Positions 253 through 40,511 of a stretch of 64,000 bases of DNA are shown one piece after another. Under the pieces are notes generated by a model. The model was not told the origin of the DNA. It made no database searches and saw only the letters and a program-made list of their open reading frames with translations. The translations under genes and the position numbers were made by a program. The stretch is from Candidatus Eiseniibacteriota bacterium (GTDB taxonomy: Bacteria > Eisenbacteria > RBG-16-71-46), in the NCBI GenBank assembly GCA_963717935.1, contig CAVQXP010000004.1, positions 1,632,001 to 1,696,000 on the forward strand, written 5' to 3'. Position 1 is the stretch's first letter. Each line of letters starts with the position of its first letter.

Positions 253-323
253 GCGGTCCCCGGGAGTGGTGGAGGGCGAGCAGAGGCACCATGCGCTCGC
301 CCCGCGCCACTCCCGGGGACCGC
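253..323. repeat. Intergenic hairpin element, copy 1 (29-bp imperfect stem, 13-nt loop AGAGGCACCATGC)
   Basis: Arms 253-281 and 295-323 are complementary apart from a 4-nt internal stretch. Core CGAGCAGAGGCACCATGCGCTCG (277-299) is identical to copies at 7994-8016 (reverse) and 40408-40430. Confidence 0.9.
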
Positions 324-491
324 TTGCGCTGTGCTTCGCACCCCCACTGCCGTTTGATGCCCCGGCGAGCGGACGCTACCATGCCCGCGTGATTCGAAGG
401 GCCGAGTCGAGGTCATCCCGAGGCCGCCCACCCCAGTCTCCCGCCGCCAGTTTCCTGGCCGGCCCGGGGGCGTCACCGTAGGACGGACGAC

Positions 492-2285
492 ATGGTTGCC
501 AATCGCAAACTCGAGGCCTGGGTTCAGGAAGTCGCCGCCATGTGCCAGCCGGAGAAGGTGGTCTGGTGCGACGGCTCGGCCGCGGAGTACCAGACCATGC
601 TGCGCCTCATGGTGCAGGCGGGCACGGCCCAGTGGCTCGATGCGGGGACGCGCCCCAACAGCGTCTTCGTGCGCTCCGACCCGGCCGACGTCGCGCGGGT
701 CGAGGAGTTCACCTTCATCTGCTCGAAGAGCCGCGAGGACGCCGGACCGACCAACCACTGGCGCGATCCGGACGAGATCCGCCGGACGCTGACCGGGCTC
801 TTCACCGGCTGCATGGCGGGCCGCACGCTCTACGTGATCCCCTACAGCATGGGGCCGATCGGCTCGCCGATCGCCAAGATCGGCGTGGAGATCACCGACT
901 CGCCCTACGTCGTCGCGAACATGCACATCATGACCCGCGTCGGCACACGCGTGCTCGACGTGCTCGGCCCCGAGGGCGAGTTCGTGCGCGGGCTGCACTC
1001 GGTCGGAGCGCCGATCGGCTCGCCCGCCGTGGCCGACGCGCCCTGGCCCTGCAACGCGCAGAACAAGTACATCTGCCACTTCCCCGAGACGCGCGAGATC
1101 TGGTCGTTCGGCTCGGGCTACGGCGGCAACGCCCTGCTCGGCAAGAAGTGCCACGCGCTGCGCATCGCCTCGGTGCAGGCCCGCGACGAGGGCTGGCTGG
1201 CCGAGCACATGCTGATCCTCAAGCTCACGAACCCCGAGGGCAGGAGTCTCTACGTCGGAGCGGCGTTCCCCTCGGCCTGCGGCAAGACCAACCTGGCGAT
1301 GATGGAGCCGACCGTGCCGGGCTGGAAGGTCGAGACCATCGGTGACGACATCGCCTGGATGAAGTTCGGCCCCGACGGGCGGCTCTACGCCATCAACCCC
1401 GAGGCCGGGTTCTTCGGCGTGGCGCCGGGCACCAGCATGCAGAGCAACCCGAACGCCCTGCGCACGCTCGCGAAGAACGCCATCTTCACGAACTGCGCGA
1501 TCACGCCCGAGGGTGACGTCTGGTGGGAGGCGATGACCGACCCGCCGGCGAACCTGATGGACTGGCTGCGGCGCCCGTGGACGCCGCAGAGCGGCCGCAA
1601 GGCGGCGCACCCGAACGCCCGCTTCACCGTGCCGGCGCGGCAGTGCCCGGTGATCGCGTCCGAGTGGGAGGACCCGAAGGGCGTGCCGATCTCGGCCTTC
1701 CTCTTCGGCGGCCGGCGCGCCACCACGGCGCCGCTGGTCAACGAGGCGTTCTCGTGGCAGCACGGCACGTTCCTCGGCTCGATCATGAGCAGCGAGACCA
1801 CGGCCGCCGCGGCCGGCGCCCAGGGCCAGTTGCGCTTCGACCCGTTCGCCATGCTGCCGTTCTGCGGCTACCACATGGGTGACTACTTCGCCCACTGGCT
1901 CGAGATCGGCGGGGCGAGCGCGCCCGAGAAGCTGCCGCGCATCTACTACGTGAACTGGTTCCGCCGCGGCGCCGACGGCGGCTTCCTGTGGCCGGGTTAC
2001 GGCGAGAACAGCCGCGTGCTCAAGTGGGTCTTCGAGCGCGTCACCGGGAAGGCCCAGGCCGTGGACACGCCCATCGGCCGCCTGCCGGCTCCGGGAGCGC
2101 TCGACCTGACCGGTCTCGCGGTGCCGAAGGCGGATCTCGAGGAACTGCTGCGCGTGGATGCGGAGCGCTGGCTCGCGGACCTGCCGCTGGTGCGCGCACA
2201 CTACGAGAAGTTCGGCGCGCGCCTGCCGGCGGCGCTGAAGGAGGAGCTGGCCACGCTCGAGCAGCGGCTGCGCGCGGTGAAGTGA
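492..2285 (+). CDS. pckG: Phosphoenolpyruvate carboxykinase (GTP)
   Basis: 597 aa with [28 protein letters not shown] (P-loop), [23 protein letters not shown]. Confidence 0.97.
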
Positions 2286-2325
2286 GCGGCGGGCCGACGC
2301 GGTCGCGCGGCCCGCAGGAGAACGA

Positions 2326-2364
2326 GAGACGACGCCCGCGGCGGATGGTCGCGGGCGTCGTCTC
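2326..2364. terminator. Hairpin between convergent pckG and glk (probable bidirectional terminator)
   Basis: 15-bp inverted repeat GAGACGACGCCCGCG / CGCGGGCGTCGTCTC. Confidence 0.6.
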
Positions 2365-2366
2365 GT

Positions 2367-3344
2367 TCAGGCGCTCGAGCGGGCCAGCTGGGCGGCGCCC
2401 CAGAGCGCGGCGCGGTCGTCGCGCAGGACCGTGACGGGGATGTGCGCCAGCAGCGGGCCCAGGCGGCCCTTGTCGTGGAGGGCGTCGAGGAAGGCGCCGG
2501 AGCGCAGGAGCGGCAGGATGCGCGGGGCGATGCCGCCGCCCAGGAAGATCCCGTTCACGGCGAGCGCCTTGAGGGCCAGGTTCCCGGCCTCGGCGCCGTA
2601 GATCGAGACGAAGCGCTCGAGCGCCAGCCGGGCGCGCTCGCAGGAACCGTCGAGCGCGGCCGTGCTCACGACCGCGGCGGGGTCCGCGGCGGCGGCGAAG
2701 CGGGCGGCTACTTCGCCCGATGCGGTCCCCCGGCCGGTCTCGGCGAGGAAGCGGTAGAGGTCCGCGAGTCCGGGTCCCGAGAGGACGCGTTCATAGCTCA
2801 CGCGCCCGTAGCGTCCGCGGAGCCACTGCAGCAGCTCGTCCTCGAGCGCGTCGCGCGGGGCGAAGTCGGTGTGTCCGCCCTCGGAGGCGGACGGCCACCA
2901 GGTCTTTCCGTCCCAGACGAGCAGGGCCTCGCCCAGACCCGTGCCGGCCGCGATCAGGACGCGGTTGCCGGGCCGGGGCGTGCCGGGATGCAGCGTTTCG
3001 ACCTCGTGCCCTCCCAGCAGCGGCAGCCCCCAGGCGGTGGCCTCGAGGTCGTTGACGAGCAGCACCGGGGCGCCGTCGAGTTCCGCGCTGAGCGCCGTCG
3101 CGCCGATCCTCCACGGCAGGTTGGTGGCCTCGACGTGCTGTTCGACGACGGGTCCGGCGATGCCCAGGACGGCGCGGGTGGGACGCGCGGGCGCGCCGGC
3201 CAGGAATTCGCGCACCAGGGCCTCGATCGTGGCGTACTCACGGCTGGGCAGGCGGCGCTCGAGGACGGGCTCGCGCACGGAGGAGGCGGGCTCGTAGAGG
3301 GCAAGGTGGGTCTTGGTCCCACCGACGTCACCAGCGAGGATCAC
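2367..3344 (-). CDS. glk: Glucokinase
   Basis: 325 aa; ILAGDVGGTKT, NDLEA, AGTGLG, SEGGH, ERVLSGPGL, GGGIAP. Confidence 0.95.
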   Translation of the reverse strand: MILAGDVGGTKTHLALYEPASSVREPVLERRLPSREYATIEALVREFLAGAPARPTRAVLGIAGPVVEQHVEATNLPWRIGATALSAELDGAPVLLVNDLEATAWGLPLLGGHEVETLHPGTPRPGNRVLIAAGTGLGEALLVWDGKTWWPSASEGGHTDFAPRDALEDELLQWLRGRYGRVSYERVLSGPGLADLYRFLAETGRGTASGEVAARFAAAADPAAVVSTAALDGSCERARLALERFVSIYGAEAGNLALKALAVNGIFLGGGIAPRILPLLRSGAFLDALHDKGRLGPLLAHIPVTVLRDDRAALWGAAQLARSSA

Positions 3345-3417
3345 GGTGGCATCCTAAGGAGTGCCGGGCGGGTGGGCAAGCCCGGACGGTTCGTGACCCG
3401 CGTCCCGGCCGGGGCGG

Positions 3418-3446
3418 TTGACGCCGCGCGCCGGGGCGGACAGTAT
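3418..3446 (+). promoter_or_regulatory. Putative sigma70-type promoter of the M48 peptidase gene
   Basis: TTGACG-N17-CAGTAT upstream of ATG 3494. Confidence 0.45.
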
Positions 3447-3493
3447 CGGTCACGTCGCGCGGGGTTTGCGCTCATCTCACCGGGAGAGACGTC

Positions 3494-4945
3494 ATGAAAC
3501 GCATCCCTCATCTGGTGCTGCCGCTCGTGGTGCTGGGGATCCTGGCCCCGGGTTGCGCGATCAATCCCGTCACCGGCCAGCGCGAATTGTCGCTCGTGAG
3601 CCCTGCGCAGGAGCTGCAGATCGGGAGCGAGGGCTACAAGGCGGTGGTCGCGGAATACGGGCTCTACGATGACCCGGCGCTCCAGGCGTACGTGAACGAG
3701 GTGGGGCAGAAGGTGGCGCGGGTCTCGCACCAGCCCGGCCTGGTGTGGCACTTCGCCGTGCTCGACGATCCCACGGTGAACGCCTTCGCCATGCCGGGCG
3801 GCTACATCTACATCACCCGCGGGATCCTCGCCCACCTGAACTCCGAGGCGCAGCTGGCGGGCGTGCTGGGCCACGAGATCGGCCACGTCACCCACCGTCA
3901 CACGGCCGAGCGCATCACGCAGCAGCAGCTCTACGGGCTGGGCCTGGGCGTCGCCTCGGCCTTCTCCGAGACGATGCGCCGCTACGGTGACCTGGCCCAG
4001 CAGGGCCTGGGGCTGCTGTTCCTCAAGTACAGCCGCGACGACGAGCGGCAGGCCGACGAGCTGGGGGTCGCCTACGCGACCGGGGCCGGCTACGATCCGC
4101 GCGAGGTCCCCTCGACCTACGCCACGCTCAAGCGCGTGAGCGATCAGGCCGGGCAGCGGCTCCCGGGCTTCCTCTCGACCCATCCCGACCCGGGCGACCG
4201 CGAAGTGACCACCGCGGCGCTGGCGAGGCGGGCGGTGCAGGGGAAGACGGGCCTCACCGTCAACGGGCGCGGCTACGTGCAGCGCCTGGACGGCGTGGTC
4301 TTCGGCAGTGATCCGCGGCAGGGCTACTTCGCGGGCGACGAGTACATCCATCCCACGCTGCGCTTCCAGTTGACCTTCCCGGCGGGCTGGAAGCACCAGG
4401 ACACGCGCTCGGCCGTGGCGGCGCAGGAGCCGGGCCAGCAGGCGGTGCTGCAACTGACGCTGGCCGACGCCGGCACGCTCGCGCCGGCTGCATTCGTCCA
4501 GCAGTTGGGCGGCCGCGGCACCTTCGCGGACGTCTCGGGCAAGCCGGAGACCATCGGCGGCTTCGCGGCCTGGGTGGGACGGGTCTCGCTCCCGCAGCAG
4601 CAGGGGGCGGCGGTGGCGGCCACGGCCGGCTACATCCGCCGGGCCGACTCGCTGATGTTCCAGTTGCTGGGCCGCAGCCAGCAGCCCGGGGACGCCAACG
4701 ACGCGAAGATCCATGCGAGCCTGCGCTCGTTCCGCGCCCTGACCGACCCCGCGCGGCTCGCGGTCCGGCCCGACCGGGTGAAGGTGGAGAAGGTCGCCAC
4801 GACGGCTACCCTGGAGGCGACCCTGCGCAGGCTGGGAGCGACGGAGAGCCTGTTCCAGACCGACGCGCTCCTGAACAACCTCGAGACCGACGAGACGGTG
4901 ATGGCGGGCACGCTGCTCAAGGTGGTCGTGCCCGGGAAACGTTAG
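3494..4945 (+). CDS. M48 family zinc metalloprotease, probable lipoprotein
   Basis: Lipobox-like LAPGC, then AINPVTG; VNAFAMPGG, HEIGH, YSRDDERQAD, LSTHP. Confidence 0.9.
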   Translation: MKRIPHLVLPLVVLGILAPGCAINPVTGQRELSLVSPAQELQIGSEGYKAVVAEYGLYDDPALQAYVNEVGQKVARVSHQPGLVWHFAVLDDPTVNAFAMPGGYIYITRGILAHLNSEAQLAGVLGHEIGHVTHRHTAERITQQQLYGLGLGVASAFSETMRRYGDLAQQGLGLLFLKYSRDDERQADELGVAYATGAGYDPREVPSTYATLKRVSDQAGQRLPGFLSTHPDPGDREVTTAALARRAVQGKTGLTVNGRGYVQRLDGVVFGSDPRQGYFAGDEYIHPTLRFQLTFPAGWKHQDTRSAVAAQEPGQQAVLQLTLADAGTLAPAAFVQQLGGRGTFADVSGKPETIGGFAAWVGRVSLPQQQGAAVAATAGYIRRADSLMFQLLGRSQQPGDANDAKIHASLRSFRALTDPARLAVRPDRVKVEKVATTATLEATLRRLGATESLFQTDALLNNLETDETVMAGTLLKVVVPGKR

Positions 4946-5020
4946 CGGGGCGCGCGGGCCGACTCTTTCGCGCGCACCGGGGCGCCCGGGTCCAGGATGG
5001 GCCCGGGCGTTTGGAGCGCC

Positions 5021-5108
5021 GCCGGGGTGGCGGAACTGGCTAGACGCGGCGGACTTAAAATCCGCTGGGCTCACGCCCGTCCGGGTTCGACTCCCGGCCC
5101 CGGCACCA
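5021..5108 (+). tRNA. tRNA-Leu (anticodon UAA)
   Basis: Acceptor stem GCCGGGG/CCCCGGC, anticodon arm GCGGA-CTTAAAA-TCCGC, long variable arm, T-arm CCGGG-TTCGACT-CCCGG, encoded CCA end. Confidence 0.96.
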
Positions 5109-5132
5109 GGCGCGGCGCCCGTGGGGGGCTGG

Positions 5133-6707
5133 CTACGGCTCCGGGGCGACCTTGCAGATGATCGCGGTCAGGTCGTCGGTCTGGGGGCCGCCCTCCGCGA
5201 AGGCCCGCGCGCCGGCGATGAGCCCTTCGAGCACCTGCCGGGCGGACCCCGCGAGGTGGGCCCTGACGATTCGCAGGGCCCCTTCGGCGCCGAGGAGGCG
5301 GCCATCGGGTGCCTGGCTCTCCGTGATCCCGTCGGTCATGAGGACGACGGTGTCGCCGGGTTCGAGCGCGATGGGCGCGGCGTCCGTGACGCCCCAGGCC
5401 GCGGAGACGCCCAGCGGAGTCCCGCTGCTCTCGAGCGCGGCCCGCACCCGGCCGTCGCGCCCCAGGACGAACCCGGAGGGATGGCCGGCATTCGCGTAGG
5501 TCAGGGACCGGGTGCGCGCGTCCAGACGCGCCAGCAGCATGGTGACGAAGCGCCCGTCCTCCAGGTCCGCGATCAGCGTCCGGTTGAGGGCGCGCAGCAC
5601 GTCGCCCGTGCCGGGGAGCGTGCGCACGAAGGCGCGCAGGTACGCGCGTGTCGCGGCCATGACCAGGGCGGGGCCCAGGCCGTGCCCGCTGACGTCGCCG
5701 ATGACGATCTCGAGCCGGCCGTCCTCCGTGACGACATAGTCGAAGCAGTCGCCGCACATCGCGGCGGCCGGGTGCGCGGCGCCGGCGATGTCGAACCCGG
5801 GGAACTCGGGTGCGCGCGCGGGGAAGAGCCCCTGCTGCACCCGGCGGGCGATCTCCAGCTCGAGTTCGTGCTCCCGCCGCAGATGGCGGTCGGTCATGTC
5901 CTTGCCGACCGCCACGAAGTGCGTGACCGTCCCGGTCGGGTCCTTGATCGGCGTGATGGTCATCTCGGCGTAGTAGATCTCCCCGCTCTTGCGCCGATTG
6001 ACCATCGTGCCGCGGAAGACCTCGCCGGCGAGCACCGTGCTCCACAGTTCGCGATAGTGGGCCGCGTCATGCCGGCCCGAGCGGAGCAGCCGCGGTGTCC
6101 GGCCGAGGATCTCGTCCTTCGAGTAGCCGGTGATGCGCTCGAAACCGGGGTTGACGTATTCGACCACGCCGTCGCGGTCCGTGATGTAGATGGCGTCGGC
6201 GGTCTGCTCCACCGCGTTGGACAGGCGACGGACGGCGTCGTCGGCGTTCCGGTGGGCGGTGATGTCCCGGAAGACCGCGACCCCGCCGAGGAGTTCTCCC
6301 GAGGGGTCCCGCCAGGGCATGGCGGTAACGCTGATCACCGCGCCGTCCGGCCGGTGCGGACCGCGCACGTAGATCTCGGCGTCGCGCGCGGCCTCGCCCC
6401 TGGCGGCGCGGACCAGGGGCAGCTGCTCGGGTGGATAGGGCGTGATCCGGTCGGGGAGGAAGAGGCCGTAGGCGTCGGACCAGGCGCCCGGGGGCGCGTC
6501 CAGAGAACCGACGCCGAGGATCCGTTCGGCGGCCTCGTTGAAGACCAGGAACACGCCCCGGCGATCGACGACGACGATGCCGTCGGAGACGGTCTGGAGG
6601 ATGGGTTCCAGGGCCCGCGACCGCGCGCGCACCGAGGCGCGGCCGGCACCGGACCGATACGAGCGTGTCCCGGGATCGCTGCGGGTCCGTTCCCTGGCGG
6701 TCGGCAT
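5133..6707 (-). CDS. PAS/PAC sensor fused to SpoIIE/RsbU-type PP2C phosphatase (start uncertain; ORF open to 6890)
   Basis: Two PAS domains (VNPGFERITGYS..E..G), then GDCFD, GDVSGHG, NAGHP, TDGITE, DDLT. Confidence 0.88.
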   Translation of the reverse strand: MPTARERTRSDPGTRSYRSGAGRASVRARSRALEPILQTVSDGIVVVDRRGVFLVFNEAAERILGVGSLDAPPGAWSDAYGLFLPDRITPYPPEQLPLVRAARGEAARDAEIYVRGPHRPDGAVISVTAMPWRDPSGELLGGVAVFRDITAHRNADDAVRRLSNAVEQTADAIYITDRDGVVEYVNPGFERITGYSKDEILGRTPRLLRSGRHDAAHYRELWSTVLAGEVFRGTMVNRRKSGEIYYAEMTITPIKDPTGTVTHFVAVGKDMTDRHLRREHELELEIARRVQQGLFPARAPEFPGFDIAGAAHPAAAMCGDCFDYVVTEDGRLEIVIGDVSGHGLGPALVMAATRAYLRAFVRTLPGTGDVLRALNRTLIADLEDGRFVTMLLARLDARTRSLTYANAGHPSGFVLGRDGRVRAALESSGTPLGVSAAWGVTDAAPIALEPGDTVVLMTDGITESQAPDGRLLGAEGALRIVRAHLAGSARQVLEGLIAGARAFAEGGPQTDDLTAIICKVAPEP

Positions 6708-7057
6708 GGGGGATGTGCACTCCTGAGGCGAAGGGCCGGTGAAGTGCGCCGCCGCGGCGAACGGTGCGGGTGCGTCCCTGCGGGGGGATGCCGGTTTCTC
6801 GAATCCGGAGGGCGCGCGATCTGGAACGCGATCCCACCGTGGCCGAGAGGTTGTGTCCGGAGCGGGCGACAGTTGTCCGGGGGAGGACAATCATCCCGGG
6901 CCGGCGTCACAGCGGGCTCTGGTGTGGTGCCCGCGTGCGGCGGGCCTGAACTTCCGGGCCGCTCCGGCGGCGTCTGCGGCTTCGGGCAGGCGACGCGCTC
7001 TCATGCTATCCTCGGCGCGCCTTCGTCACGCCCAACCTGCCTTCCAGGGGAGCCGCC

Positions 7058-7963
7058 ATGCCGATCACCAAGCTCGACCAGATCGTCGAAACCGTGAAGT
7101 CCCGCCCCCGCAAGCGCCTCATCGCCGTCTGGGCCAACGACTCGCACACCATCGCCGCCGTGGGGCAGGCCGTGAGCCTGGGCCTCGTGGAGGGCACGCT
7201 GGTAGGCGACGAGGCCGCCATCCGCTCCGTCTGCAAGAGCGAGGGGCTCGACCCCGGGATGTTCGCCATCGTGCAGGAGTCGTCCGACACGAGCGCGGCC
7301 GCCCGCGCCGTGGCCATGGTGAACGCCGGTGAAGCGCAGATCCTGATGAAGGGGCTGGTCTCGAGCGACAAGTACATGCGCGCCATCCTCCACAAGGAAA
7401 AGGGACTCATGGATGCCGGCGCGATCCTGAGCCACGTGACCGTGATCGAGGTCGAGCGCTATCCGAAGCTCATTGTCTGCGGCGACGTGGCGGTCCTGCC
7501 GGCGCCGGAGCTCAAGGAGAAGATCGCGATCACGCGCTACCAGATCGCGGTGGCCCACGCGCTGGGCATCGAGCGGCCCAAGGTGGCGATCATCGCGGCC
7601 ACCGAGCAGATGCTCTACAAGATGCAGGCCTGCGTGGACGCGGCGATCATCGCGAAGATGGCGGATCGCGGCGACATCAAGGGCGCGCTCGTGGACGGTC
7701 CGCTCGCCCTGGACGTGGCGGTGGATGCCGAGGCGGTGGCGATCAAGGGGCTGAAGAGCGCGGTGGCCGGAGACGCGGACTGCCTGGTGTTCCCCAACAT
7801 CGAGTCGGGGAACGTCTTCTACAAGACCTGCACCAAGCTGGCGGGCGCGGAACTGGCGGGTCTGGTGGTGGGCGCCCGTGTCCCGTGCGTACTGACCTCG
7901 CGGGGCGACACGGCGAAGAGCAAGATGTACTCGATCGCCCTGGCGGCCCTCACGGCGCGCTGA
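7058..7963 (+). CDS. ptb: Phosphate butyryl/acyltransferase
   Basis: 301 aa; LMKGLV, LSHV, DGPLALDVAV, AGDAD, PNIESGNVFYK, VLTSRGD. Confidence 0.9.
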   Translation: MPITKLDQIVETVKSRPRKRLIAVWANDSHTIAAVGQAVSLGLVEGTLVGDEAAIRSVCKSEGLDPGMFAIVQESSDTSAAARAVAMVNAGEAQILMKGLVSSDKYMRAILHKEKGLMDAGAILSHVTVIEVERYPKLIVCGDVAVLPAPELKEKIAITRYQIAVAHALGIERPKVAIIAATEQMLYKMQACVDAAIIAKMADRGDIKGALVDGPLALDVAVDAEAVAIKGLKSAVAGDADCLVFPNIESGNVFYKTCTKLAGAELAGLVVGARVPCVLTSRGDTAKSKMYSIALAALTAR

Positions 7964-7966
7964 CCG

Positions 7967-8040
7967 GTAGCGGCTCCAGCGAATCGACCCCGGCGAGCGC
8001 ATGGTGCCTCTGCTCGCCGGGGTCGATTCGCTGGAGCCGC
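7967..8040. repeat. Intergenic hairpin element, copy 2 (perfect 29-bp stem, same 13-nt loop, GTAG foot)
   Basis: 7970-7998 is the exact reverse complement of 8012-8040; loop GCATGGTGCCTCT; GTAG at 7967-7970. Confidence 0.92.
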
Positions 8041-8124
8041 AGCCCCCCGGGCCGGTTCCGCGGCTCCGGTGGGCGATGGTCGGAAAGGGTGCCCCGGGCT
8101 CGAACCCGGATCGCCTTCGTTCGT

Positions 8125-10377
8125 CTACCCGCCCTGGCCGGACGCCGGCCGGGACGCCGGCTGCCGGGGCTCCGCCACGTACTGGCGCGCTTCCTCCTTG
8201 CCGTCGAGGACGCGCAGGACGCCCTTGACCAGCGCGGAGAGTTCGTTCTCGCCAGGGTAGAGGCTCACGCCGCAGCCCATGGCCGCGACCATCCGCGTGA
8301 TCTCGCCCACGAGGCGCTGCGAGCGGGCCATGCCACCCGTGAGCAGGATGCGATCGACCGGCTCGCCGTCGAAGGCCGGGACGAGCGAGGCGATCTCCTT
8401 GGCGATCTGGTAGACCATCGCCTCGAAGACCTGCGCCGCCTCCTGGTCGCCGGCATCGATGCGGCGCTCGACCTCGCGCAGGTCGGCCGTGCCGAGCAGA
8501 TCGATGAGCCCGCCGCGCCCCTTGTTGAGCAGCTTGAGCTCGGGCTTCGTGTAGCGGCCCGAGAAGCACAGCTCGATCAGTTGGCCGGTGGGCATGCCGC
8601 CCGAGCGCTGCGGCGAGAACGGCCCTTCGCCGTCCAGCGCGTTGTTGACGTCGATGTAGCGGCCGCGCTTGTGCGCGCCCACGCTGATGCCGCCGCCCAG
8701 GTGGCAGACGATGACGTTCACCTTCTCGTAGAACGTCTCGTGCTCCTCGGCGTAGCGGCGTGCGGTGGCGATCTGGTTGAGGGCGTGGCTGATGATCTTG
8801 CGGCGCACGGCCTTCATGCCGCTCACGCGGACGCGCTCGGGTGCCTCGTCCACCACCACGGGGTCCACGATGAAGGCGGGCTTGCCGAGGCCGGTGGTCA
8901 GCTCGCGGGCGATCAGCGCGCCCAGGTTCGAGGCGTGCTCGCCGTAGCGTGCCGTGCGCAGGTCGGCCACCATGTCGTCGGAGACGGCCAGCGTGCCGTG
9001 CGGGATGGGGTGCAGGATGCCGCCGCGGGCCGCGATGGCATCCAGGTCCGCCACGCTCAGTCCGTGGTCGGCCAGGGCCTTCGTGATGATCTGCTTGCGG
9101 AAGGCGTATTGCTCGGTGATGCCCTTGCCCTCGAAGGGGAGCAGCTCCTCGGCCGTGTGCTGCAGTTCGAGCGTGAAGCGCTCCTCCTCGCCCTCGAAGA
9201 CGCCGATCTTGGTCGACGTGGAACCTGGATTCAGGGCCAGCACGCGGTGGCGGTGGAAGAAGGTATCGCGCGGCGTGCGGTCCCACTCGCCGAAGCGGTA
9301 CATGCGGAGCACCGAGGCCTTGACCGCGAGCCGGATGTCCTCGGGCGCGCAGTCCATGGGAAGGTCTACGCCGCGGAACCGCAGGCCGAACATGGCGGGG
9401 AACTTCTTCGCGTCCGGGAAGCGCGCCGCGTAGAGGTGGTAGAGCAGGTTCCCCATCTCGAGGTTCGGGCAGATGATCACGTTGGGGCTGCCGCCCCACG
9501 TCGACTCGCGGTTCCCGTCGTAGTACATGGCCGAGCGCTGCGACAGCGCCACCGAGACCTTGACCTCGCCCTGGATGCGGATCGTCGCGTAGCGCTCGTT
9601 CTTGTCCACGCGCTCGGCCAGCACGCGGGGGATGAGCGCCATGGCCTGCCGGACCAGTTCGGGCGAGGGGCCCTCGTCCGAGCCGCGGTTCGAGTAGGAG
9701 ACGATGACGCCGTGGATCTCGGGCAGCACCTCCACCGGGATCAGGTCGCGCGCGATCACGCAGGTGCCGACCGCCACGTGGGCGAGCGCCTCGGGCGTCA
9801 TGGTGGCGTTCACGCCGACGTCACCGAAGACCACGATGCCGTGCGGGAAGACATCGGGCGTCGTGTCGTCGGGGAGCACGAAGACCCCCGCCTCGCAGCG
9901 CACCGGCTGCCGGGCGAGCAGCCGGACCATGGGCCGGAAGTAGTCCCTGGGTGCGTGTGTGGCGCCGCCCACGACCGTGTCGGCGTGGCCGAGGCGCACG
10001 GCCCAGATGCCGAAGCGGGCGGGCTCCATGACCGTGCGCCGCGCCTGGTCGAGCGGGATCTCGGCATCCTGCTCCTTGCAGAATTCGAACTGTGCGCGCG
10101 CGAACTCCTCGACCAGGTCGGTGCGCCCGGGGATGTCCACGAAGGCGCTCTCCGACAGGAAGAAGTCCACGCGGTCGGCATCCACGTGACCGAGGCTCCG
10201 GGCGATCACGTCACGCACCTGCGGCTCGGAGGCCAGGAACACGGGGCGCACGAAGCGGACGAGGTGGCAGACCGCCTCGATGACGCGCGGGTCGAGGGCC
10301 TCCGGGAAGACGACGGTGGGGCGGGCCTTGGTGAAGCCCTGGATCTGCTGGTCGAAGGTGTCTTCGATATCGAACAT
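8125..10377 (-). CDS. buk: Fusion of a phosphotransacetylase-like domain and butyrate kinase
   Basis: 750 aa from MFDIEDT with GGAG RBS. N-half VVFPEA..PRV, FGDVGVN, SYSNRGS, PNLEMGN (Pta fold). C-half NPGSTSTK, ARGG, HASNLGA, VDPVVVDE, HALNQ, HLGGGIS, LTGG, YPGENE (butyrate kinase). Confidence 0.88.
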   Translation of the reverse strand: MFDIEDTFDQQIQGFTKARPTVVFPEALDPRVIEAVCHLVRFVRPVFLASEPQVRDVIARSLGHVDADRVDFFLSESAFVDIPGRTDLVEEFARAQFEFCKEQDAEIPLDQARRTVMEPARFGIWAVRLGHADTVVGGATHAPRDYFRPMVRLLARQPVRCEAGVFVLPDDTTPDVFPHGIVVFGDVGVNATMTPEALAHVAVGTCVIARDLIPVEVLPEIHGVIVSYSNRGSDEGPSPELVRQAMALIPRVLAERVDKNERYATIRIQGEVKVSVALSQRSAMYYDGNRESTWGGSPNVIICPNLEMGNLLYHLYAARFPDAKKFPAMFGLRFRGVDLPMDCAPEDIRLAVKASVLRMYRFGEWDRTPRDTFFHRHRVLALNPGSTSTKIGVFEGEEERFTLELQHTAEELLPFEGKGITEQYAFRKQIITKALADHGLSVADLDAIAARGGILHPIPHGTLAVSDDMVADLRTARYGEHASNLGALIARELTTGLGKPAFIVDPVVVDEAPERVRVSGMKAVRRKIISHALNQIATARRYAEEHETFYEKVNVIVCHLGGGISVGAHKRGRYIDVNNALDGEGPFSPQRSGGMPTGQLIELCFSGRYTKPELKLLNKGRGGLIDLLGTADLREVERRIDAGDQEAAQVFEAMVYQIAKEIASLVPAFDGEPVDRILLTGGMARSQRLVGEITRMVAAMGCGVSLYPGENELSALVKGVLRVLDGKEEARQYVAEPRQPASRPASGQGG

Positions 10378-10571
10378 GCGGTCTCCGGCTCCCGCGCCGG
10401 CCGGGGAAGAGGGTCGGTCCGTGCGCACGGCGGTACTTGGTTAAGCCATCGGACGACCGGCGACGCCGGTCGCAACGGGGCATTCTAGCAATGGAACGGC
10501 CCCACGTCGCGCAACGCGCCCGCTCGAGCGCCGCGGCCAGGCTGGCGGCGCTCGAGGGGACGATCCCGGCC

Positions 10572-11183
10572 TTACACGGATTCCCTGGTCCCGCCCTCCG
10601 GCTCGATGCCCTCCGGGGTCCGTTGCCTGCATTCGGTGCAGAGCTCGTCCGCGAGCAGGAAGTCAGGGTGCTTGCGCAGGAAGATTCGCACCTGGCCGAG
10701 GGGATCGGACGCCTTGCGGTCCGCGCCGCAGCCCGGGCAGAGGGGGAGGAGCTCGCGCAGCTCGACGAGCTGGGTGGCGTCCTCCAGCACGACCAGCACG
10801 AGCTTGCGGCCCTCGAGTGCCAGCGGCGAGGCGCTGACCAGGAACCAGCGGTCCTCGGGCGGTCCCGTCGCGCCGAGGATCATGTGCGCCATGCGGCGCG
10901 GCGCCGGCCGTCCCGACACCACCGCCTCGATGGACTGCCGCAGGACACAGGACGGGCAGAAGTCGGTGGTGCCGCAGCCGCCGCGGGAGTCCTGCGGGAA
11001 GATGCAATGGAGCACGTCTCCGGGATGCAGGCTCAGCCGCGTTCCGACTCCGTCGCCCAGCCACTGCCGGGCGGCCCGGTTCGCTTCGAGGATCGTCGCT
11101 TCGCCATCCGCGACGAAGGCCAGGGAAGGGAGCGCATCGAGCAGCGCGAGCAGGCTGGAGCCTTCCGGTAGCACGTGTTCCAT
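10572..11183 (-). CDS. PAS-domain protein with Cys clusters and a C-terminal LLPLCxxC...CxxC tail
   Basis: 203 aa from MEHVLPEG; PAS-like ILEANRAA, PGDVLHC..GCGTTDFCPSCVLR, VVLEDAT, LLPLCPGC, LCTEC. Confidence 0.65.
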   Translation of the reverse strand: MEHVLPEGSSLLALLDALPSLAFVADGEATILEANRAARQWLGDGVGTRLSLHPGDVLHCIFPQDSRGGCGTTDFCPSCVLRQSIEAVVSGRPAPRRMAHMILGATGPPEDRWFLVSASPLALEGRKLVLVVLEDATQLVELRELLPLCPGCGADRKASDPLGQVRIFLRKHPDFLLADELCTECRQRTPEGIEPEGGTRESV

Positions 11184-11389
11184 GGTGGCAACCTCGCAGC
11201 GAGCGATGGAGGGCAGCGGGACAGCGGCGGGCCCGGGTGGTGGACGCCGTTTCGGAAGGTGGGCGCTCCGGCACCGAAATCGGGTCGAGCCTGCCACAGG
11301 CCCGGACCCCAGGCAAACGGTCCGGCCTGCCGGGGGCCCGCGCCACCCCGCACTCGTGGTCACATCCGTCACGTCCGGGGTCTGGGTCT

Positions 11390-11418
11390 TTGACGCGGGG
11401 CCGCGGGGGGCGGACGAT
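11390..11418 (+). promoter_or_regulatory. Putative sigma70-type promoter of the S46 peptidase gene
   Basis: TTGACG-N17-GACGAT. Confidence 0.35.
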
Positions 11419-11561
11419 AGGGCCGCGAGCGCGCCGCGTGGCCGCGCGGCCCGTCCTGCGGACGGGGCCGTGCGGCGGGGAGTGCCCGACCAGACTCGCG
11501 TCCTGTCCCATCCCGGTCCTCCGGCCCCTGCCGGTCGGGCCGCGTCCCCGGGGGAGAACTC

Positions 11562-13678
11562 ATGAGCCGCACCGCCACGCTCCGGCGCGGAACCCGCGCC
11601 TTCGCCGCCTCTGCGGCACTCTTCGCCATCCTGGTCGCAGCCGTTCTCCTGCCGGACGCCGTCCGAGCGGACGAGGGCATGTGGACCTTCGACCACCTGC
11701 CGCTCCAGCGGCTGCAGGAGCGCTACGACTTCACGCCCACGCCCGAATGGGTCGAGCACGTCCAGAGGGCCTCGATCAACTTCGGCGGTGGTTCGGGTGC
11801 CTTCGTGTCGCCCGACGGGCTGGCGCTCACGAACCACCACGTGGCGCTCGGCCAGATGGCGAAGATGTCCTCGCCCGGGCACGACTACGTCCGCGACGGC
11901 TTCTTCGCGCGCACTCGCGCCGAGGAGCTGCCCTGCCCCGACCTCGAGCTCAAGGTGCTGATGACCAGCCAGGACGTGACCGCCCGCGTCCTGGGGGCGG
12001 TGGACTCGGCGGCCGTCGACCAGCGAGCAGAGCGCCCAGCGCAAGGTGGCCATGGCCCGCATCGAGCAGGAGGGGAGCCGCGACGGGCTCAGGGGCGAGG
12101 TGGTCGAGCTGTACCGCGGTGGCGAGTACTGGCTCTACCGCTACAAGACCTACAAGGACGTGCGCCTGGTGTGCGCGCCCGAGGAGCAGGCCGCCTTCTT
12201 CGGCGGCGACCTCGACAACTTCTGCTATCCCGCGCCACGACCTGGACTTCGCCTTCTTCCGCGTCTACGAGGACGGCCGGCCGGTCCGCCCGCAGCACTG
12301 GTTCCGCTGGAGCAAGGAGGGCGCGCGCGAGGGCGACCTCGTCTTCGTGGCGGGCAATCCGGGCACGACCAAGCGACTCTACACCGTGGCGCAACTCGAC
12401 CACGAGCGGAACCTGCGATCTGCCGCTGCGGATCCGCCTCAACGAGCAGCGCCTCGCGGCCTACCGGGCCTACGGGGCGCGCGGGCCCGAGCAGGAGCGC
12501 CAGGCCCGCGACCGGGTCCGCGGCCTCGAGAACAACCTCAAGCGCCAGCACGGTTTCCTGGAGGTGCTCTCGGACTCCGGCGGTGATGAAGGCGCGCCGC
12601 GACCGCCGAGGCGGCCCTGCGCCAGCGCATCGCCGCGAACCAGGCGGTCTCGGGGCTGGCGAGCCTCGCCTGGGAGCGCATCGCCGGCGCCATGAAGGAG
12701 ATGGGCCGCCGGCACACGGAGCACGTGGTGCGCGATCTCTCGCGTTCGAGCCGCCTGCTCGACATCGCGAACGGCATCGTGCGCTACACCACCGAGGTGG
12801 TGAAGCCCAACGAGCGAGCGCTTCAAGGAGTACCGCGACGCGAGGCTCGACTCCGAGCGCTTCCGGCTCTTCTCGCTCGCGCCCGTCTATCCCGAGATGG
12901 AGGAGATGACCCTCGGCGTGGTCCTGAGGCAGTGCCGCGGACGAGCTGGGCGCGGACGATCCGTTCGTCCAGGCTGGCGCTGGGCGGACGCACGCCGCAG
13001 GAGTGTCGCGCACACGCTGATCGCGGGCACGAAGCTGGGCGACCTCGCCGTGCGCACGGGCCCTGATCGAGGGCGGTGCGCAGGGCCGTGGCCGCCTCGA
13101 AGGATCCGCTCATCGTCTGGGCGCGTAGGCTCGACGCTCCCTACCGCGAGCTGCGTGCCTGGCACGAGGACCGCGTGCAAAGCGTCGAGACCCTGGACGG
13201 CGGGAGGATCGCGCGGGCGCGCTTCGCGCTCGAGGGCCGGGCGCTGCCCCCGGATGCCACCGGCTCGCTGCGGCTCTCCTACGGGAAGGCGGTCGGCTAC
13301 CCGCAACTGAGCACGCTGGTGCCCTGGGCCACCACGTTCCACGGCCTCTTCGACCGGGCGCTGAGCTTCGGTGGCCAGCCGCCGTTCGACCTGCCGGCGC
13401 GCGTCGCCGAGCACGAGAAGGACCTCGATCTGGCCACGCCGCTGAACTTCGTCAGCACCGACGACATCATCGGGGGGAACTCGGGCAGCGCGGTGCTGAA
13501 CCGCGCAGGCGAGTACGTGGGCCTGGTGTTCGACGGCAACGTGCAGGCCTACGCCTGGGACTACTACTACACCGAGGAGCAGGCGCGCTGCGTCTCGGTG
13601 CATTCGCGGGCGCTGATCGAGGTGCTGCGGAAGGTCTACGACCTGGGCGCGCTGGCGGACGAGGTGGAGGGGAAGTAG
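11562..13678 (+). CDS. S46 family dipeptidyl peptidase (DPP7/DPP11-like); several frameshifts, probably sequencing indels
   Basis: Signal peptide then [77 protein letters not shown], spread over alternating frames. Confidence 0.88.
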
Positions 13679-13890
13679 CCCCCGGGCACGGCGCCAGAGG
13701 CGCGGCGGGGACCAGCGGAGGGCGAGCGTGTCCGTACTTAGCCGCCTTCCGCTGGTCCCCGCCGCGCCTCTGGCGCCAGGGCAGGTCGGAGGGCGAACGT
13801 GCGGACGATCAGCCGCCCTCCGGCTGGCCCCGCCTCCGTCGCGCCCTGTTGGAGTCCCGGACTCGCCCTGTGGCATAGTGCGGCCCGACC

Positions 13891-15386
13891 ATGACCTCCA
13901 CCCGCGCATCCGGTCTCCTGCTGCATCCGACGTCGCTCCCCGGACGCTTCGGCATCGGCGACCTCGGGCCCGAGGCGTCGCGCTGGGTGGACTTCCTCGC
14001 CGCGGCAGGGCAGAGGCTCTGGCAGGTCCTGCCGCTCGGTCCCACCGGATACGGCGACTCGCCCTACCAGAGCTTCTCGGCCTTCGCCGGGAACCCGTAC
14101 CTCGTGAGCCCCGAGCGGTTGTCCGAGGACGGTCTGCTGGGGCCCTCGGACCTCGCGGGAGTGCCAGCGTTCCCCGCCGACCGCGTGGACTACGGTCCGG
14201 TGATCGAGTGGAAGCTCGCGATCCTGGCGAAGGCCCACGCGCGCTTCTCGGCGGGCGCCGTCCCCGTGCTGCGCGCGGAGTACGATGGCTTCTGCCACGC
14301 ACAGGCGGACTGGCTCGAGGACTTCGCCCTCTTCATGGCGCTCAAGGAAGCGCACGGCGGTGCGACCTGGACCTCGTGGGAGAAGGGCCTGGTCGCGCGG
14401 GAGCCCGGGGCCCTCGCCGCCGCGCGCGAGCGCCTCGCGTCGGCGGTGGACTCGCAGCGTTTCCGCCAGTTCCTCTTCTTCCGCCAGTGGAGGGCGCTGC
14501 GCGCGCGCGCGCGCGCGGCAGGGCGTGCGCATCATCGGCGACCTGCCCATCTTCGTCGCGCACGACAGCGCCGACGTCTGGGCCCATCCGGAACTGTTCC
14601 AGCTCGACGCCCGGGGCGCGCCCGACGGTCGTGGCCGGCGTGCCGCCGGACTACTTCGCGAAGACCGGGCAGCTCTGGGGCAACCCGCTCTACCGCTGGG
14701 ACGACGCTGCGCGCGGGACGGCTACGCCTGGTGGGTGGAGCGGCTGCGCGCCACCTTCGAGGTCGTGGACGTCGTGCGGCTCGACCACTTCCGCGGCTTC
14801 GAGGCATGCTGGGAGGTGCCGGCGGGGCATGCCACGGCCGAGAACGGGCCGCTGGGTGAAGGGGCCGGGCGCGGCACTTCTTCGAGAGCGTGCGCGCCGC
14901 GCTGGGAGCGCTGCCCATCATCGCCGAGGACCTCGGCCTGATCACCCCCGAAGTCTTCGCGCTGCGCGACCGCTTCGATCTGCCGGGGATGAAGGTCCTG
15001 CAGTTCGCCTTCGAGAAGGACGCGCTGCACCCGTTCCTGCCGCACAACTTCCCGCACGAACTGCGTGGTCTACACCGGGACCCACGACAACGACACCACG
15101 CGCGGCTGGTACGCGAGCGCGCCCGAGAAGGAGCGCCACTTCGCGCGGTCCTATCTGGGTCGCGGAGGGCAGCGACATCACCTGGGACCTGATCCGCGCC
15201 GGCATGGCCTCGGTGGCCGACACGTTCATCGTGCCGCTGCAGGACGTCCTGGACCTGGGGCCCGAGGCGCGCATGAACCTGCCCGGCCGGCCGGGCGGCA
15301 ACTGGGGCTGGCGTTTCCGGCACGAGCAGGTGACGGACGCCGAGCGCGACCGGCTGCGGGGGCTCGTGGAGACCTACGGGCGATAG
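13891..15386 (+). CDS. malQ: 4-alpha-glucanotransferase (amylomaltase, GH77); frameshifted
   Basis: GLLLHPTSLPG, WQVLPLGP, SPYQSFS, IIGDLPIFV, AGVPPDYF..TGQLWGNPLY, RLDHFRGF, IAEDLG, YTGTHDNDT, MNLPG..GNW.WR. Confidence 0.92.
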
Positions 15387-35697: not shown

Positions 35698-36929
35698 GCG
35701 TCGAGGTCAAGGTCCCGCGGCTGGCCGAGTCCATCGCGGACGCCACGCTCGTCGAATGGCTCAAGGGGGACGGCGAGGCCGTGCGTCTGGACGAGCCCGT
35801 CGCCACGCTGGAGACCGACAAGGCGGCGGTGGAGATCTCCGCCACGGAGAGCGGCGTGCTGCGCCACGCGCGGAAGGTGGGCGACGTGGTGCGGATGGAC
35901 GACGTGCTGGCGCGCATCGAGCCCGGCGCGGTCCCCGCTGCCGCTGCGGCGCGGCCTGCCGCGCCCGCCGCCCGCCCGTTCCCGCCGGGGGTGGCTGCGG
36001 CCGCCCCGCCGGCCGCCGTTCCCGGGGTCCCGTTCGGACCTGCCGTGCGGCGCCTGGTCGAGGAGCACGGGCTCGACCCGGCGTCCGTGACGGGGACGGG
36101 CCCGGGCGGGCGGTTGCTCAAGGAGGACGTGCTGCGGCACCTCGAGGCGGCCGCCTCGTGCCCCGCCATACCCGCCCGCCCCGCCGCGCCGCCCGCGCCG
36201 CCGCCGTCCGGCCCCGCCGCTCCCGCGGAGGCTGGCGAGCGCGTCGTGCCGATGAACCGCATCCGCCAGCGGATCGCCGAGCGTCTCGTGCAGGCCCAGC
36301 ACACGGCCGCGATCCTGACCACGTTCAACGAGGTGGACATGAGCGCGATCGTCGAGTTGCGGGCGCGACGGCGCGAGAGCTTCGAGCAGCAGCACGGGTT
36401 GAAGCTCGGTCTCACGAGTTTCTTCGGGCGCGCCTGCGTCCAGGTGCTGCGCGAGGTCCCCGAGTTGAACGCCAGGGTCCGCGGCACCGACGTCGTCTAC
36501 CACGATTTCGTCCATCTCGCCGTGGCGGTGCAGACCGACCGGGGCCTGGTGGTGCCGGTCATCCACGACGCGCACCGGCTCTGCTTCGTGGAACTCGAGC
36601 GCGAGATCGCCCGCCTGGCCGGGAAGGCCCGCGACCACCGGCTCTCGCTCGACGACCTGGCGGGGGGCACCTTCACGGTCTCGAACGGCGGCATCTTCGG
36701 CTCGCTGTTGTCCACGCCCATCCTCAACCCGCCGCAGAGCGGCATCCTCGGCATGCACAAGATCGAGAAGCGCCCCGTGGTCGTGGCCGACCAGGTCGTG
36801 ATCCGGCCCATGATGTACGTCGCGCTCTCCTACGACCACCGCATCGTGGACGGCGAGCAGTCGGTCAGCTTCCTGGTGCGGGTGAAGGAGCGGCTCGAGG
36901 ATCCCGAGCGCCTGTTGCTGGACGTCTGA
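35694..36929 (+). CDS. sucB: Dihydrolipoyllysine succinyltransferase (E2)
   Basis: GTG overlapping the sucA stop; lipoyl domain ETDKA, E3-binding [29 protein letters not shown]. Confidence 0.95.
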
Positions 36930-37022
36930 GCGGCGGGCCCTCGCCGGCGGACCCACCCTCGGCCGGTGGCCGCCTGCGCGCGACCGCCGCGCATCCCGTG
37001 GGACATAGAGGAGACCCGCTTC

Positions 37023-38424
<1,402 letters not shown>

Positions 38425-38536
38425 CCGGTCCACGGTGTGCCCGCCCCTCGCCGGATGCCCCCGGCGGGTGCCGCCCGGCGCTCATCGCGGGTGGATCCTT
38501 GTCCCGGGCCGGGCATCTCAGGGTTTTGGGGCAGGA

Positions 38537-38565
38537 TTGACTGCCCGGTCCTCCATTGGTAGGAT
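38537..38565 (+). promoter_or_regulatory. Putative sigma70 promoter
   Basis: TTGACT-N17-TAGGAT, about 140 nt upstream of ATG 38708. Confidence 0.55.
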
Positions 38566-38707
38566 TATTGCGAATGGTCCATTGAGATAAGGGTTCTGCG
38601 CTTCCCCTTCGGCCCCCCCTTGGAGCGCGGAACGAGGCCGTGTAGCTGCCAGGTCGACTCCCAAAAGGTCCGGCGCTTTGCTTCCACCAGCTCGGGAGAG
38701 ACAATCC

Positions 38708-39478
38708 ATGCGTGGTCTGATCGGGTGTCTGTTCACCCTGTTCATCGGCACCGCACTTTGTGCAGCCGTTCCGTCTCAGGCTGCCGTGGAGGTCGTCTTC
38801 GGGGATTCCTGGGATGGCCCGAGCCAGAACCTCCAGGTGATCGTGGATGGTCTTTACGGGGTGGGCCGGATCGACGTGAAGCGCGACTACCTCGGTGCGA
38901 AGGCCGATGAGCCAGACCCATGGTTCTGGGTGGACAACAAGTTCGCGGCGCTGCTCGTGAGAGAGGTGGCCGGGAACGCGGGTGCCAACCAGGTCGGCTG
39001 GTACGAGGAGACGGGCTCGATGCCCGTGCTCACGAACGACGGCGTGCGCGACGGGCTGGTGTTCGACGGCCCCGCGGGGGCGGGCGCCAGCGCGATCCTG
39101 ACCTTCACGAAGCCCATGATGCGGTTCGGCTTCTACCTGAACCCCAACGGCCCCCTCGACGCTCTCAACGCTCCCGAGCCGGAGAAGTTCTTCACGAACC
39201 GCACGTTCAACGACATCGGTCCCGACGGGAGCGGTGCGCTGCACTCGCCCACGGGCGGCGACATGCAGGTGCTGGTCTTCGACCTCTCGAATATCACGGA
39301 GGCGAACACCTGGCTCGTGTGCTTCGAGGACCTGGACTCGGGCGCCGTGCCGGGCCCGATCGGCCAGGCGCAGACCGACAACGATTTCAACGATTTCATC
39401 TTCGAAGTCAAGGCCTTCGGCGCGACGCCGGTCCAGCCGCTCTCCTTCGGCGGGCTCAAGGCGAAATACGCGCGCTGA
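38708..39478 (+). CDS. Secreted protein with DUF4114-like C-terminal region and ATP...SFGGLKAKY tail
   Basis: Signal peptide; FGFYL; CFEDL...DNDFNDFIFEV; ends ATPVQPLSFGGLKAKYAR. Confidence 0.7.
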   Translation: MRGLIGCLFTLFIGTALCAAVPSQAAVEVVFGDSWDGPSQNLQVIVDGLYGVGRIDVKRDYLGAKADEPDPWFWVDNKFAALLVREVAGNAGANQVGWYEETGSMPVLTNDGVRDGLVFDGPAGAGASAILTFTKPMMRFGFYLNPNGPLDALNAPEPEKFFTNRTFNDIGPDGSGALHSPTGGDMQVLVFDLSNITEANTWLVCFEDLDSGAVPGPIGQAQTDNDFNDFIFEVKAFGATPVQPLSFGGLKAKYAR

Positions 39479-39491
39479 CGGTTCCCTCCCG

Positions 39492-39531
39492 GCACGGCGG
39501 GCGCGCCCCTCAGGGAGCGCGCCCGCCGTGC
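39492..39531 (+). terminator. GC-rich hairpin after the secreted-protein gene
   Basis: GCACGGCGGGCGCGC...GCGCGCCCGCCGTGC inverted repeat. Confidence 0.5.
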
Positions 39532-39643
39532 GTCGGGAGCGGGGCCCCGTGGTGCGTGAGCGAGGTCCAGCCGTTTGACGCCCGCGCGGCCTCTGCGACA
39601 TCCTGCGCGATCATGACGACCGCACCCATCGGGTCCGCCTGAG

Positions 39644-40303
39644 GTGTTCCACTCGCTCCTGACCGTCTGGTTCGACCTCACGCTGAGGTGGGGCTACGCA
39701 GGCGTGTTCGTGCTCATGGCGATCGAGTCCACCGTGTTCCCGCTGCCGAGCGAGGTCGTGATCCCTCCGGCGGCCTACCTGGCGACGCAGGGGCACATGC
39801 ACTTCTGGGGCGTGGTGGCCGCAGCGACGCTGGGCTCGTGGGCGGGCTCGGCGCTCTCCTACTGGGTGGCCCGGGCGGTCGGGCGCCCGCTGCTGCTGCG
39901 CTACGGCCGCTACGTGTTCGTGCCCGAGAAGAAGTGGCTGCTGGCCGAGGGCTGGATCAACCGCTATTCCGCGGCCGGCATCTTCTTCGCGCGTCTGCTG
40001 CCGGTCGTCCGGCACCTGGTCTCGCTCCCCGCGGGGGCGGCGCGCATGCGCTTCGGGGTCTTCACGACCATGACGCTGCTCGGCTCCTTCGTGTGGTCCA
40101 CCGTCCTGGCCTGGTTCGGCGCGCAGGTGCTCGGCGAGGAGAAGCAGTTGCTCCAGGACCCGGACGCGCTGGTGCGCGTGCTGAAGCACAAGCTGGTCTG
40201 GTTCATGGCTGCGGCCGCGGTCCTGCTCCTGCTGTACGTCCTGGTGGACGTGATCGGGCGCCGGCTGCGGCGCGACGCCGCGGGCGCGGCGAAGACCTCC
40301 TGA
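39644..40303 (+). CDS. DedA family membrane protein
   Basis: MAIES..FPLPSEVV.PPA, GRP...RYG, FFARLLPVVRHLVSLPAG. Confidence 0.9.
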   Translation: MFHSLLTVWFDLTLRWGYAGVFVLMAIESTVFPLPSEVVIPPAAYLATQGHMHFWGVVAAATLGSWAGSALSYWVARAVGRPLLLRYGRYVFVPEKKWLLAEGWINRYSAAGIFFARLLPVVRHLVSLPAGAARMRFGVFTTMTLLGSFVWSTVLAWFGAQVLGEEKQLLQDPDALVRVLKHKLVWFMAAAAVLLLLYVLVDVIGRRLRRDAAGAAKTS

Positions 40304-40382
40304 GAGGCAGGCCGGGCGCACCGCGTTCGGCCGGTGCGCGACGCTCGCCGGACTCCTGGCCCCGGGCTGGCGCGTGGCCACT

Positions 40383-40511
40383 CAGGGAGCCAGCGTGCAG
40401 CGGGGGCCGAGCAGAGGCACCATGCGCTCGGCCCCCGCTGCACGCCGGCTCCCTGGCTACGATGGCAGGCCCATGCGCTCGGCCCCTGCTGTGCGCCCGC
40501 TCCCTGACTAC
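40383..40511. repeat. Intergenic hairpin element, copy 3 (30-bp stem, one mismatch), plus a tandem degenerate half copy
   Basis: Arms 40383-40412 and 40426-40455 with the same 13-nt loop; CTAC (GTAG on minus) at 40457-40460; 40471-40511 repeats 40420-40460 at 36/41 identity and also ends in CTAC. Confidence 0.9.

Follow-up and report, generated by a model that had tools for sequence, protein, structure and literature searches.

The stretch analysed here, referred to as the window, comprises 64,000 nt of an assembly of Candidatus Eiseniibacteriota bacterium (G000:C4:1632001-1696000; G000 denotes the source genome, which is 93% complete). It contains three long intergenic hairpins with a common loop, which we call loop-type 1 (Table 1). 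An original prediction, made from the letters of the window, had described them as a dispersed hairpin family with an invariant 23-nt core and interchangeable stems of 29-30 bp. The core proved to be exact at all three positions, no match to it appeared in 100 shuffles of the window even when three mismatches were allowed, and in each copy the arms pair with their own partner over 29, 29 and 30 bp, respectively. The DNA-fold z-scores of the three hairpins lie between -6.6 and -10.9, and the 13-nt loop folds further into a 4-nt bulge, a 3-bp stem and a triloop. However, the outer arms had also been said to differ completely between the copies, which is not the case, as the window copies pairwise share 9-14 of 24 arm positions. 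A survey of the long hairpins additionally revealed a second loop type on the same arms, which has 13 pattern matches in G000 and one copy, followed by a decayed one, in the window. Half-copies like the one after copy 3 also occur at the loci L030, L032, L037, L162 and L164.

Table 1. Hairpin copies in the window and third-family copies elsewhere in the source genome (window positions unless a contig is given)
Feature	Position	Strand	Description
Loop-type 1 copy 1	253..323	+	29-bp arms around 13-nt loop; core 277-299; between divergent transaldolase-like gene and PEPCK
Copy 1, probable complete unit	238..334	+	about 15-nt 5' flank, hairpin and about 11-nt 3' tail; presumed ends
Loop-type 1 copy 2	7970..8040	-	perfect 29-bp arms; core 7994-8016; between convergent phosphate acyltransferase genes
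Loop-type 1 copy 3	40383..40455	+	30-bp arms; core 40408-40430; between convergent genes
Tandem half-copy after copy 3	40471..40511	+	3' part of loop, 3' arm and tail
Loop-type 2 copy	13690..13777	-	30-bp outer arms; core 13723-13744; overlooked in the original prediction; skipped by run X1 contigs
Loop-type 2 partial tandem copy	13780..13836	-	decayed
Third-family copies	G000:C2:364171, C4:124013, 251377, 732220, 955414, 867386, C1:52507		loci L326, L329, L331, L333-L335

As predicted, the family is larger than the three window copies. The 3.0 Mb of G000 carry 19 exact loop-type 1 copies, 25 when one mismatch is allowed, 25 at two and 27 at three. According to gene calls made in this analysis, all 25 are intergenic. 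Copies on C4 are split evenly between the leading and the lagging replication strand (11 each). The four gene contexts are used evenly (29, 26, 24 and 21 of 100 copies, the last being divergent), and seven of the 25 G000 copies sit between divergent genes. None of the 25 has four or more T in the 8 nt on either side, and an intrinsic terminator was therefore rejected, in line with the earlier view that plain termination does not explain all of the copies. The element pattern was found in five of seven other genomes of the genus and in one of 53 further relatives, and a single-contig genome also carries it; the two genus genomes without it are 54% and 81% complete. A search of one genome per species returned 29 matching stretches, of which 27 were titled Ca. 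Eisenbacteria, one an unnamed bacterium and one Acidobacteriota; the last (L041) lies inside an open reading frame (ORF), forms no hairpin and was regarded as a chance match. Metagenome contigs gave 98 matching stretches and viral contigs none, while the nine plasmid and two phage matches were weak and partial, none covering 80% of the element. A covariance model matched 12 of 89 genomes of the taxonomic family, strongly only in the genus and on one G019 contig. The single G019 copy was not accepted as spread outside the genus, as its flanks are 92% identical to G000 and the contig may be misplaced, and the hairpins of five weak matches in other genera do not show family membership. Among the genomes searched, the family is thus confined to one genus of uncultured Eisenbacteria.

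Across 158 distinct copies, pairing stays at 70-90% up to base pair 29 and is about 30% past base pair 30, and 81 of the 158 stems measure 28-31 bp. A short tail motif lies 3' of the stem in 28 of these copies versus three mirrored ones, and a CTAC-containing tail is common to copy 3 and the copy at G000:C4:1902605. From this tail, the median tandem period of 92 nt (n = 39) and the net 96 nt that are missing at copy 1 in a related population (run X1), we infer that the unit has a length of about 95 nt. The loop is the best-conserved part, the arm columns being mostly at 45-80%. Nevertheless, mean arm identity among the 25 G000 copies is 49% versus 38% for shuffled arms and a consensus is visible (GCGGGNCCCGG...TGGG), so that, judged by their sequences, the arms are homologous and descended from one consensus. 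An asymmetric bulge near the foot, kept in distant members of the genus and in some G000 copies, was taken as the ancestral state. The 3' RCGCTCG half of the loop is common to all loop types, and genome G007 has a hybrid loop that joins types 1 and 2. In a third family, variable, complementary arms of 28-31 bp enclose a branched core of about 100 nt; this core has two CAGGATG loops, which resemble CsrA sites, and four matches in the relative G005 carry paired changes. The GTAG foot noted previously is indeed present in copies 2 and 3 but is not a mark of the family: it occurs in six of the 25 G000 copies, where it is never mirrored, and in all 158 copies it lies ten times on one side and four times mirrored. 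At one orthologous site, the loop is flipped and GTAG nonetheless remains with the flank.

The arms change together. In the 12 alignable of 18 orthologous pairs, both members had changed in 61 arm pairs (51 of these being Watson-Crick in each genome) and one member in 31, whereas 196 pairs were unchanged, and the four-fold degenerate sites neighbouring these copies differ at 606 of 3173 positions (19%). When 64 copies selected for good pairing were aligned (59 from a list of 78, plus five), 539 cells were found changed on both sides and only 22 by a wobble change, and the covariation score was 0.69 versus 0.16 when shuffled. The ancestral bulge differs in length between the arms and was found replaced by the mirror of one arm: in 198 copies it was kept in 17, mirrored left-to-right in 12, as counted with a loose pattern, and right-to-left in one, the clearest cases being L066 and L060. 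Moreover, of 28 orthologous pairs with a single copy each, 13 have the loop in opposite orientations, at six of 17 sites (one of the six being a different loop type). Window copy 2 belongs to these; its orientation is the same in G005 and L171 and opposite in L170, and the copy is missing from G004 and G003. At two sites, several relatives share an orientation that differs from that of G000, and G004 has the two orientations next to each other at one site, which argues against a random choice of orientation by the assembler. In PMC8604942 and PMC5941160, arm homogenisation and spacer inversion are both described as outcomes of polymerase template switching in quasi-palindromes, at orthologous loci, just as seen here. 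Because both are known on DNA, the covariation counts only weakly as evidence for an RNA. The stems called interchangeable are variable yet paired, but they are better read as homologous arms that diverge about neutrally and are made symmetrical again on DNA. However, template-switch correction does not account for the dispersal, the conserved loop or the difference between lineages in loop decay described below.

A comparison of orthologous loci, which had been proposed as a check, showed that the copies differ between relatives. Of 107 relative copies with enough flank, 80 could be mapped to G000, giving 21 distinct sites with a G000 hairpin and 26 without one. The run X1 contigs skip all three hairpins of window positions 1-15000, copy 1 among them; this copy is present in G005 with three core changes and absent in G004. 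Copy 3 was not found past the orthologous gene in G005, G004 or G001. Their dispersal suggests a gain of copies, and loss is also at work. An inverted target-site duplication as the origin of the arms was rejected, since the empty sites hold no single arm and the arms share a consensus across loci.

We consider it probable, short of confident, that this palindromic, intergenic repeat of about 95 nt, which is gained and lost between relatives, is non-autonomous mobile DNA that is moved as a single-stranded hairpin by an enzyme. The arms would be structural spacers that mutate at a roughly neutral rate, and template switching by the polymerase would re-match them and also flip the loop. The putative recognition site of the mobilising protein would be the conserved loop, and there especially the 3' RCGCTCG half. 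The loop-specific binding or nicking site of the original prediction is a reasonable inference. By analogy with RAYT (a tyrosine transposase associated with REP, the repetitive extragenic palindromic sequence) and the TnpA of IS200/IS605, the mobiliser would probably be an HUH-type single-strand nuclease, which is an analogy and not a result. Several observations weigh against this interpretation. No clean insertion junction was recovered at this divergence, where a target duplication is unreadable, and the cleanest empty site resembles a deletion between short direct repeats, which implies that some absences are losses. All loop types together amount to only about 45 copies, far under typical REP numbers. 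The nearly unchanged cores of G000 are not explained by passive template switching, which cannot repair the loop. The covariation score is partly circular because of the selection for good pairing, and the stem mismatches, as read along the loop strand, comprise 89 A.C versus 50 G.T and slightly favour wobble pairs on the opposite strand, albeit among copies that are not independent. Finally, neither a catalytically intact HUH-Y1 gene nor any other mobilising enzyme was found in G000 (Y1, RAYT, Ssn, TnpB and reverse transcriptase were searched for). Known DNA copying accounts for most of what is odd about the family, though not for its conserved loop and fixed arm length.

The sole Y1_Tnp match in G000 is an IS200-TnpA-like gene after lexA (L001:1447-1905, G000:C4:653507-653965, minus strand; also L071-L100), which is without the catalytic Tyr and one His and lies 5.4 kb from the nearest copy. 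This gene is present in 37 of 40 genomes of the taxonomic family, mostly as a single copy, and thus does not track the repeat; HUH is kept in most and the catalytic Tyr is absent in all of the aligned copies. The protein looks domesticated and may be a putative binder of single-stranded DNA, possibly linked to the SOS response; PMC6006769 makes no mention of lexA. The RAYT model NF047646 stayed below its cut-off in five of five genomes, and a regular expression for the HUH motif, a crude test, had no match in the G000 frames. Neither TnpB nor reverse transcriptase was found in G000, nor was a GIY-YIG gene of Ssn size, the sole match lying in a 692-codon frame read as UvrC. IS91/Y2 transposases were matched in none of five genomes, but the control genomes likewise gave no match. 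Only two tyrosine recombinase matches, read as putative XerC/XerD, exist in G000. Of 419 genes called beside copies, 68 had no close G000 homologue, and their 50 representatives, judged by eye, included one IS256 transposase. In G004, a hairpin copy has an IS256-family transposase (L006:246-1433) at a distance of about 40 bp, and there are two equally scoring reverse transcriptase genes (L203, L204) without a hairpin beside them. Two RAYT-like genes of G007 with intact HUH and Tyr motifs (L205 and L210, on G007:C93) flank another transposase, and no hairpin of the family was seen beside them.

In its working, the element is REPIN-like (REPINs being hairpins with a REP at each end) without being a member of the REPs, and it is apparently undescribed. 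It is extragenic and multi-copy, forms hairpins and occurs in tandem arrays, as REPs and REPINs do; a GTAG-type tag, two terminal palindromes and a flanked RAYT gene with HUH and Tyr are lacking. As in REPINs, an extragenic long hairpin of about 90 nt is restricted to a lineage, occurs in tandem arrays and has a variable yet paired part, with no two copies identical (PMC3337134; PMC3116915). However, REPINs keep their two REP ends and vary the middle, their spacers being the variable part (PMC3337134), whereas here the middle is kept and the arms vary; there is also no REP palindrome in each arm, no RAYT gene flanked by copies, and about 45 copies instead of hundreds. Like the GTAG- and CGTC-tagged REPs, the repeats are palindromic and intergenic and show complementary stem changes; group 2 REPs have a stem bulge, to which the ancestral bulge can be likened, and some REP dimers have conserved spacers. 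In contrast, tagged REP stems have 5-13 bp and the tag is present in more than 90% of the members of most families, as compared with 29 bp and six of 25 copies here (PMC3733652 and PMC8266576 for the tagged REPs). Combined with the missing intact HUH-Y1 gene in G000, the latter count does not bear out the suggested link to GTAG tags and RAYT enzymes. The Ssn nucleases with their NTS/SRM repeats offer another likeness, that of dispersed single-stranded DNA hairpin repeats read by a small nuclease, but Ssn ignores the identity of the loop and its gene is flanked by the repeats (PMC11893778), and G000 is without such a small GIY-YIG gene. The end of a MITE (a miniature transposable element with inverted repeats) or insertion sequence (IS) was rejected, because the ends vary and the adjoining IS110 and IS256 are absent at orthologous sites or unrelated in sequence.

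Integron attC sites end in RYYYAAC...GTTRRRY and are positioned in cassette arrays; these ends are not in the consensus and the copies are dispersed, and attC was therefore rejected as well. MIRU-like coupling involves a small ORF that bridges neighbouring genes in a fixed frame. It was also discarded, as the loop ATG falls into the three frames in 13, 18 and 16 of 47 copies, with a stop near the next start in five of the 47. The only Rfam match in the window was one tRNA; six loci searched at E values up to 5 gave eight matches, all far below the gathering score. No prior description of an Eisenbacteria hairpin repeat, or of repeats with a conserved loop and variable stems, was found in the literature covered, which left out supplements and most subscription journals. 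The suggestion of an undescribed REP/REPIN-like or non-coding RNA (ncRNA) family stands in its first half, the behaviour being REP/REPIN-like, and is not supported in its second, given the loop flips and the even gene contexts.

Loop conservation differs between the lineages. In a relaxed scan, the well-paired copies of G000 had no core edits in 16 cases and one in six (n = 22), whereas 13 of 19 copies of G005 had two to four edits and five of 19 in G004 had two to five. At the eight sites that G000 and G005 have in common, changes private to one genome affected 1 of 184 core positions in G000 versus 14 of 184 in G005 (Fisher p = 0.0008), while private four-fold changes near the same sites were similar (189 of 2105, 9%, and 159 of 2105, 8%). 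The core thus decays neutrally in G005 and not in G000, although the sites are few, the G005 assembly is fragmented and G004 shares no more than two sites, both decayed there. An earlier core-divergence figure of 7/276 was discarded as biased, because the relatives had been found by near-exact cores. Such a contrast would be expected if a loop-reading enzyme maintained the element by nicking intact copies and rebuilding arm from arm, thereby setting the 29-bp length, flipping loops and purging or restoring damaged ones. The unpaired arm positions agree with this (27 of 144 in G005 versus 9 of 144 in G000, p = 0.002, with two of the eight sites dropped), although mixed strains in the fragmented G005 assembly could create one-sided mismatches. 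Core edits also correlate with arm pairing (Spearman -0.37, 59 copies), but this is confounded by genome. Three loop types, including the core of about 100 nt, all have arms of 28-31 bp; arm length can, however, simply be inherited. Old shared G004 copies with two and five core edits have well-paired arms and there is no candidate enzyme. We regard active maintenance as unlikely. Its fuller form, a repeat system independent of a transposase or served by an unknown enzyme, in which one loop-reading protein would both spread the element and rewrite its arms to a fixed 29-30 bp around exchangeable cores (two 13-nt loops, a hybrid and the branched core), being active in the G000 lineage and off in G005, is to us an equally doubtful prospect.

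The loop could instead be kept by selection at each locus, the hairpin being a cruciform DNA site co-opted for a host protein. A site that is read on either strand would agree with the orientation-free placement and with the little core divergence seen in G000, and at one site a copy is retained, in both orientations, by at least six relatives; close relatives without the same copies, the decay in G005 and the two incomplete genus genomes that show none make this improbable. A structured RNA with stems covarying under pairing selection (a small RNA, a ribosome decoy or a stabiliser of mRNA) appears a shade more improbable. The very stable folds, the covariation and the A.C over G.T bias would suit it, as would the AGAGG and ATG/GTG motif in loop-type 1, which resembles a ribosome-binding site, but loop-type 2 has no ATG, the ATG of loop-type 1 has no preferred frame and no Rfam family matched. 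Loops flip at orthologous sites, 21 of 100 copies lie in divergent contexts and wobble changes are rare (22 versus 539). RNA runs X19 and X20 contained only short pieces of relatives and were uninformative on expression. An ordinary GTAG-tagged REP or REPIN whose RAYT gene was lost, or is missing from the incomplete G000 assembly, is very unlikely. The GTAG feet of G000, the resemblance of the ancestral 5' foot to half of the SBW25 GI/GIII REP palindromes (PMC3337134, Table 1) and the intact RAYT-like genes of G007 speak for it; against it stand the lack of a short palindrome at each end, a loop that is the peak of conservation, unlike REPIN spacers, the lack of hairpins beside these genes and the RAYT model scores. 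Fold-back chimeras formed during assembly have a negligible chance of explaining the family. Short-read assemblers do have difficulty here, as the core lies within 40 nt of a locus end in 26 of 98 metagenome loci, but genomes that are independent of each other carry the same arms at orthologous sites, altered in lineage-specific ways, and the arms also occur in the single-contig genome. An artefact is refuted for the element itself, although single orientation calls could still be wrong. Neither this nor a known IS or MITE end held up, and the family is real.

A REPIN-like element with a reversed conservation pattern and no recognisable transposase makes its mobiliser an open target. If the system is truly active in G000 and off in G005, a comparison of the two gene sets offers a direct way of seeking the responsible protein. 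Moreover, the family is a natural case of massive stem covariation that comes from DNA copying and hence a warning for covariation-based ncRNA screens.

Some further observations concern the surroundings of the copies and other repeats. At L199 (G000:C2:234576-236020), an IS110 element with GATAC at either end separates the stop codon of lon from the foot of a hairpin; it is absent from the site in four relatives, and the gene past the hairpin is truncated in G000. For a bridge RNA aimed at the hairpin, there was only one 9-nt match to the junction, and one copy. In another genus, L233:1503-1568 is a hairpin whose 30-bp arms themselves contain the loop-type 1 core with two mismatches, as though two cores had been inverted around a 6-nt loop. 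Other perfect 28-bp hairpins with unrelated short loops were found at G000:C4:986138-986197, C4:976819 and C1:102047, the first of which occupies a site where G004 carries a loop-type 1 copy. A fourth small intergenic repeat with a CGCTCGCCCGGAGCGC core is present at G000:C4:282435, 338776, 340732 and 447819. An IS end containing GGGGACAC occurs four times (G000:C2:65838, 181481, 455230 and C5:45493), twice adjoining a two-ORF IS3-like transposase. Beside window copy 2, the minus-strand gene at 8125-10377 fuses a phosphate acyltransferase domain to an acetate/butyrate kinase domain and is convergent with the second acyltransferase gene.

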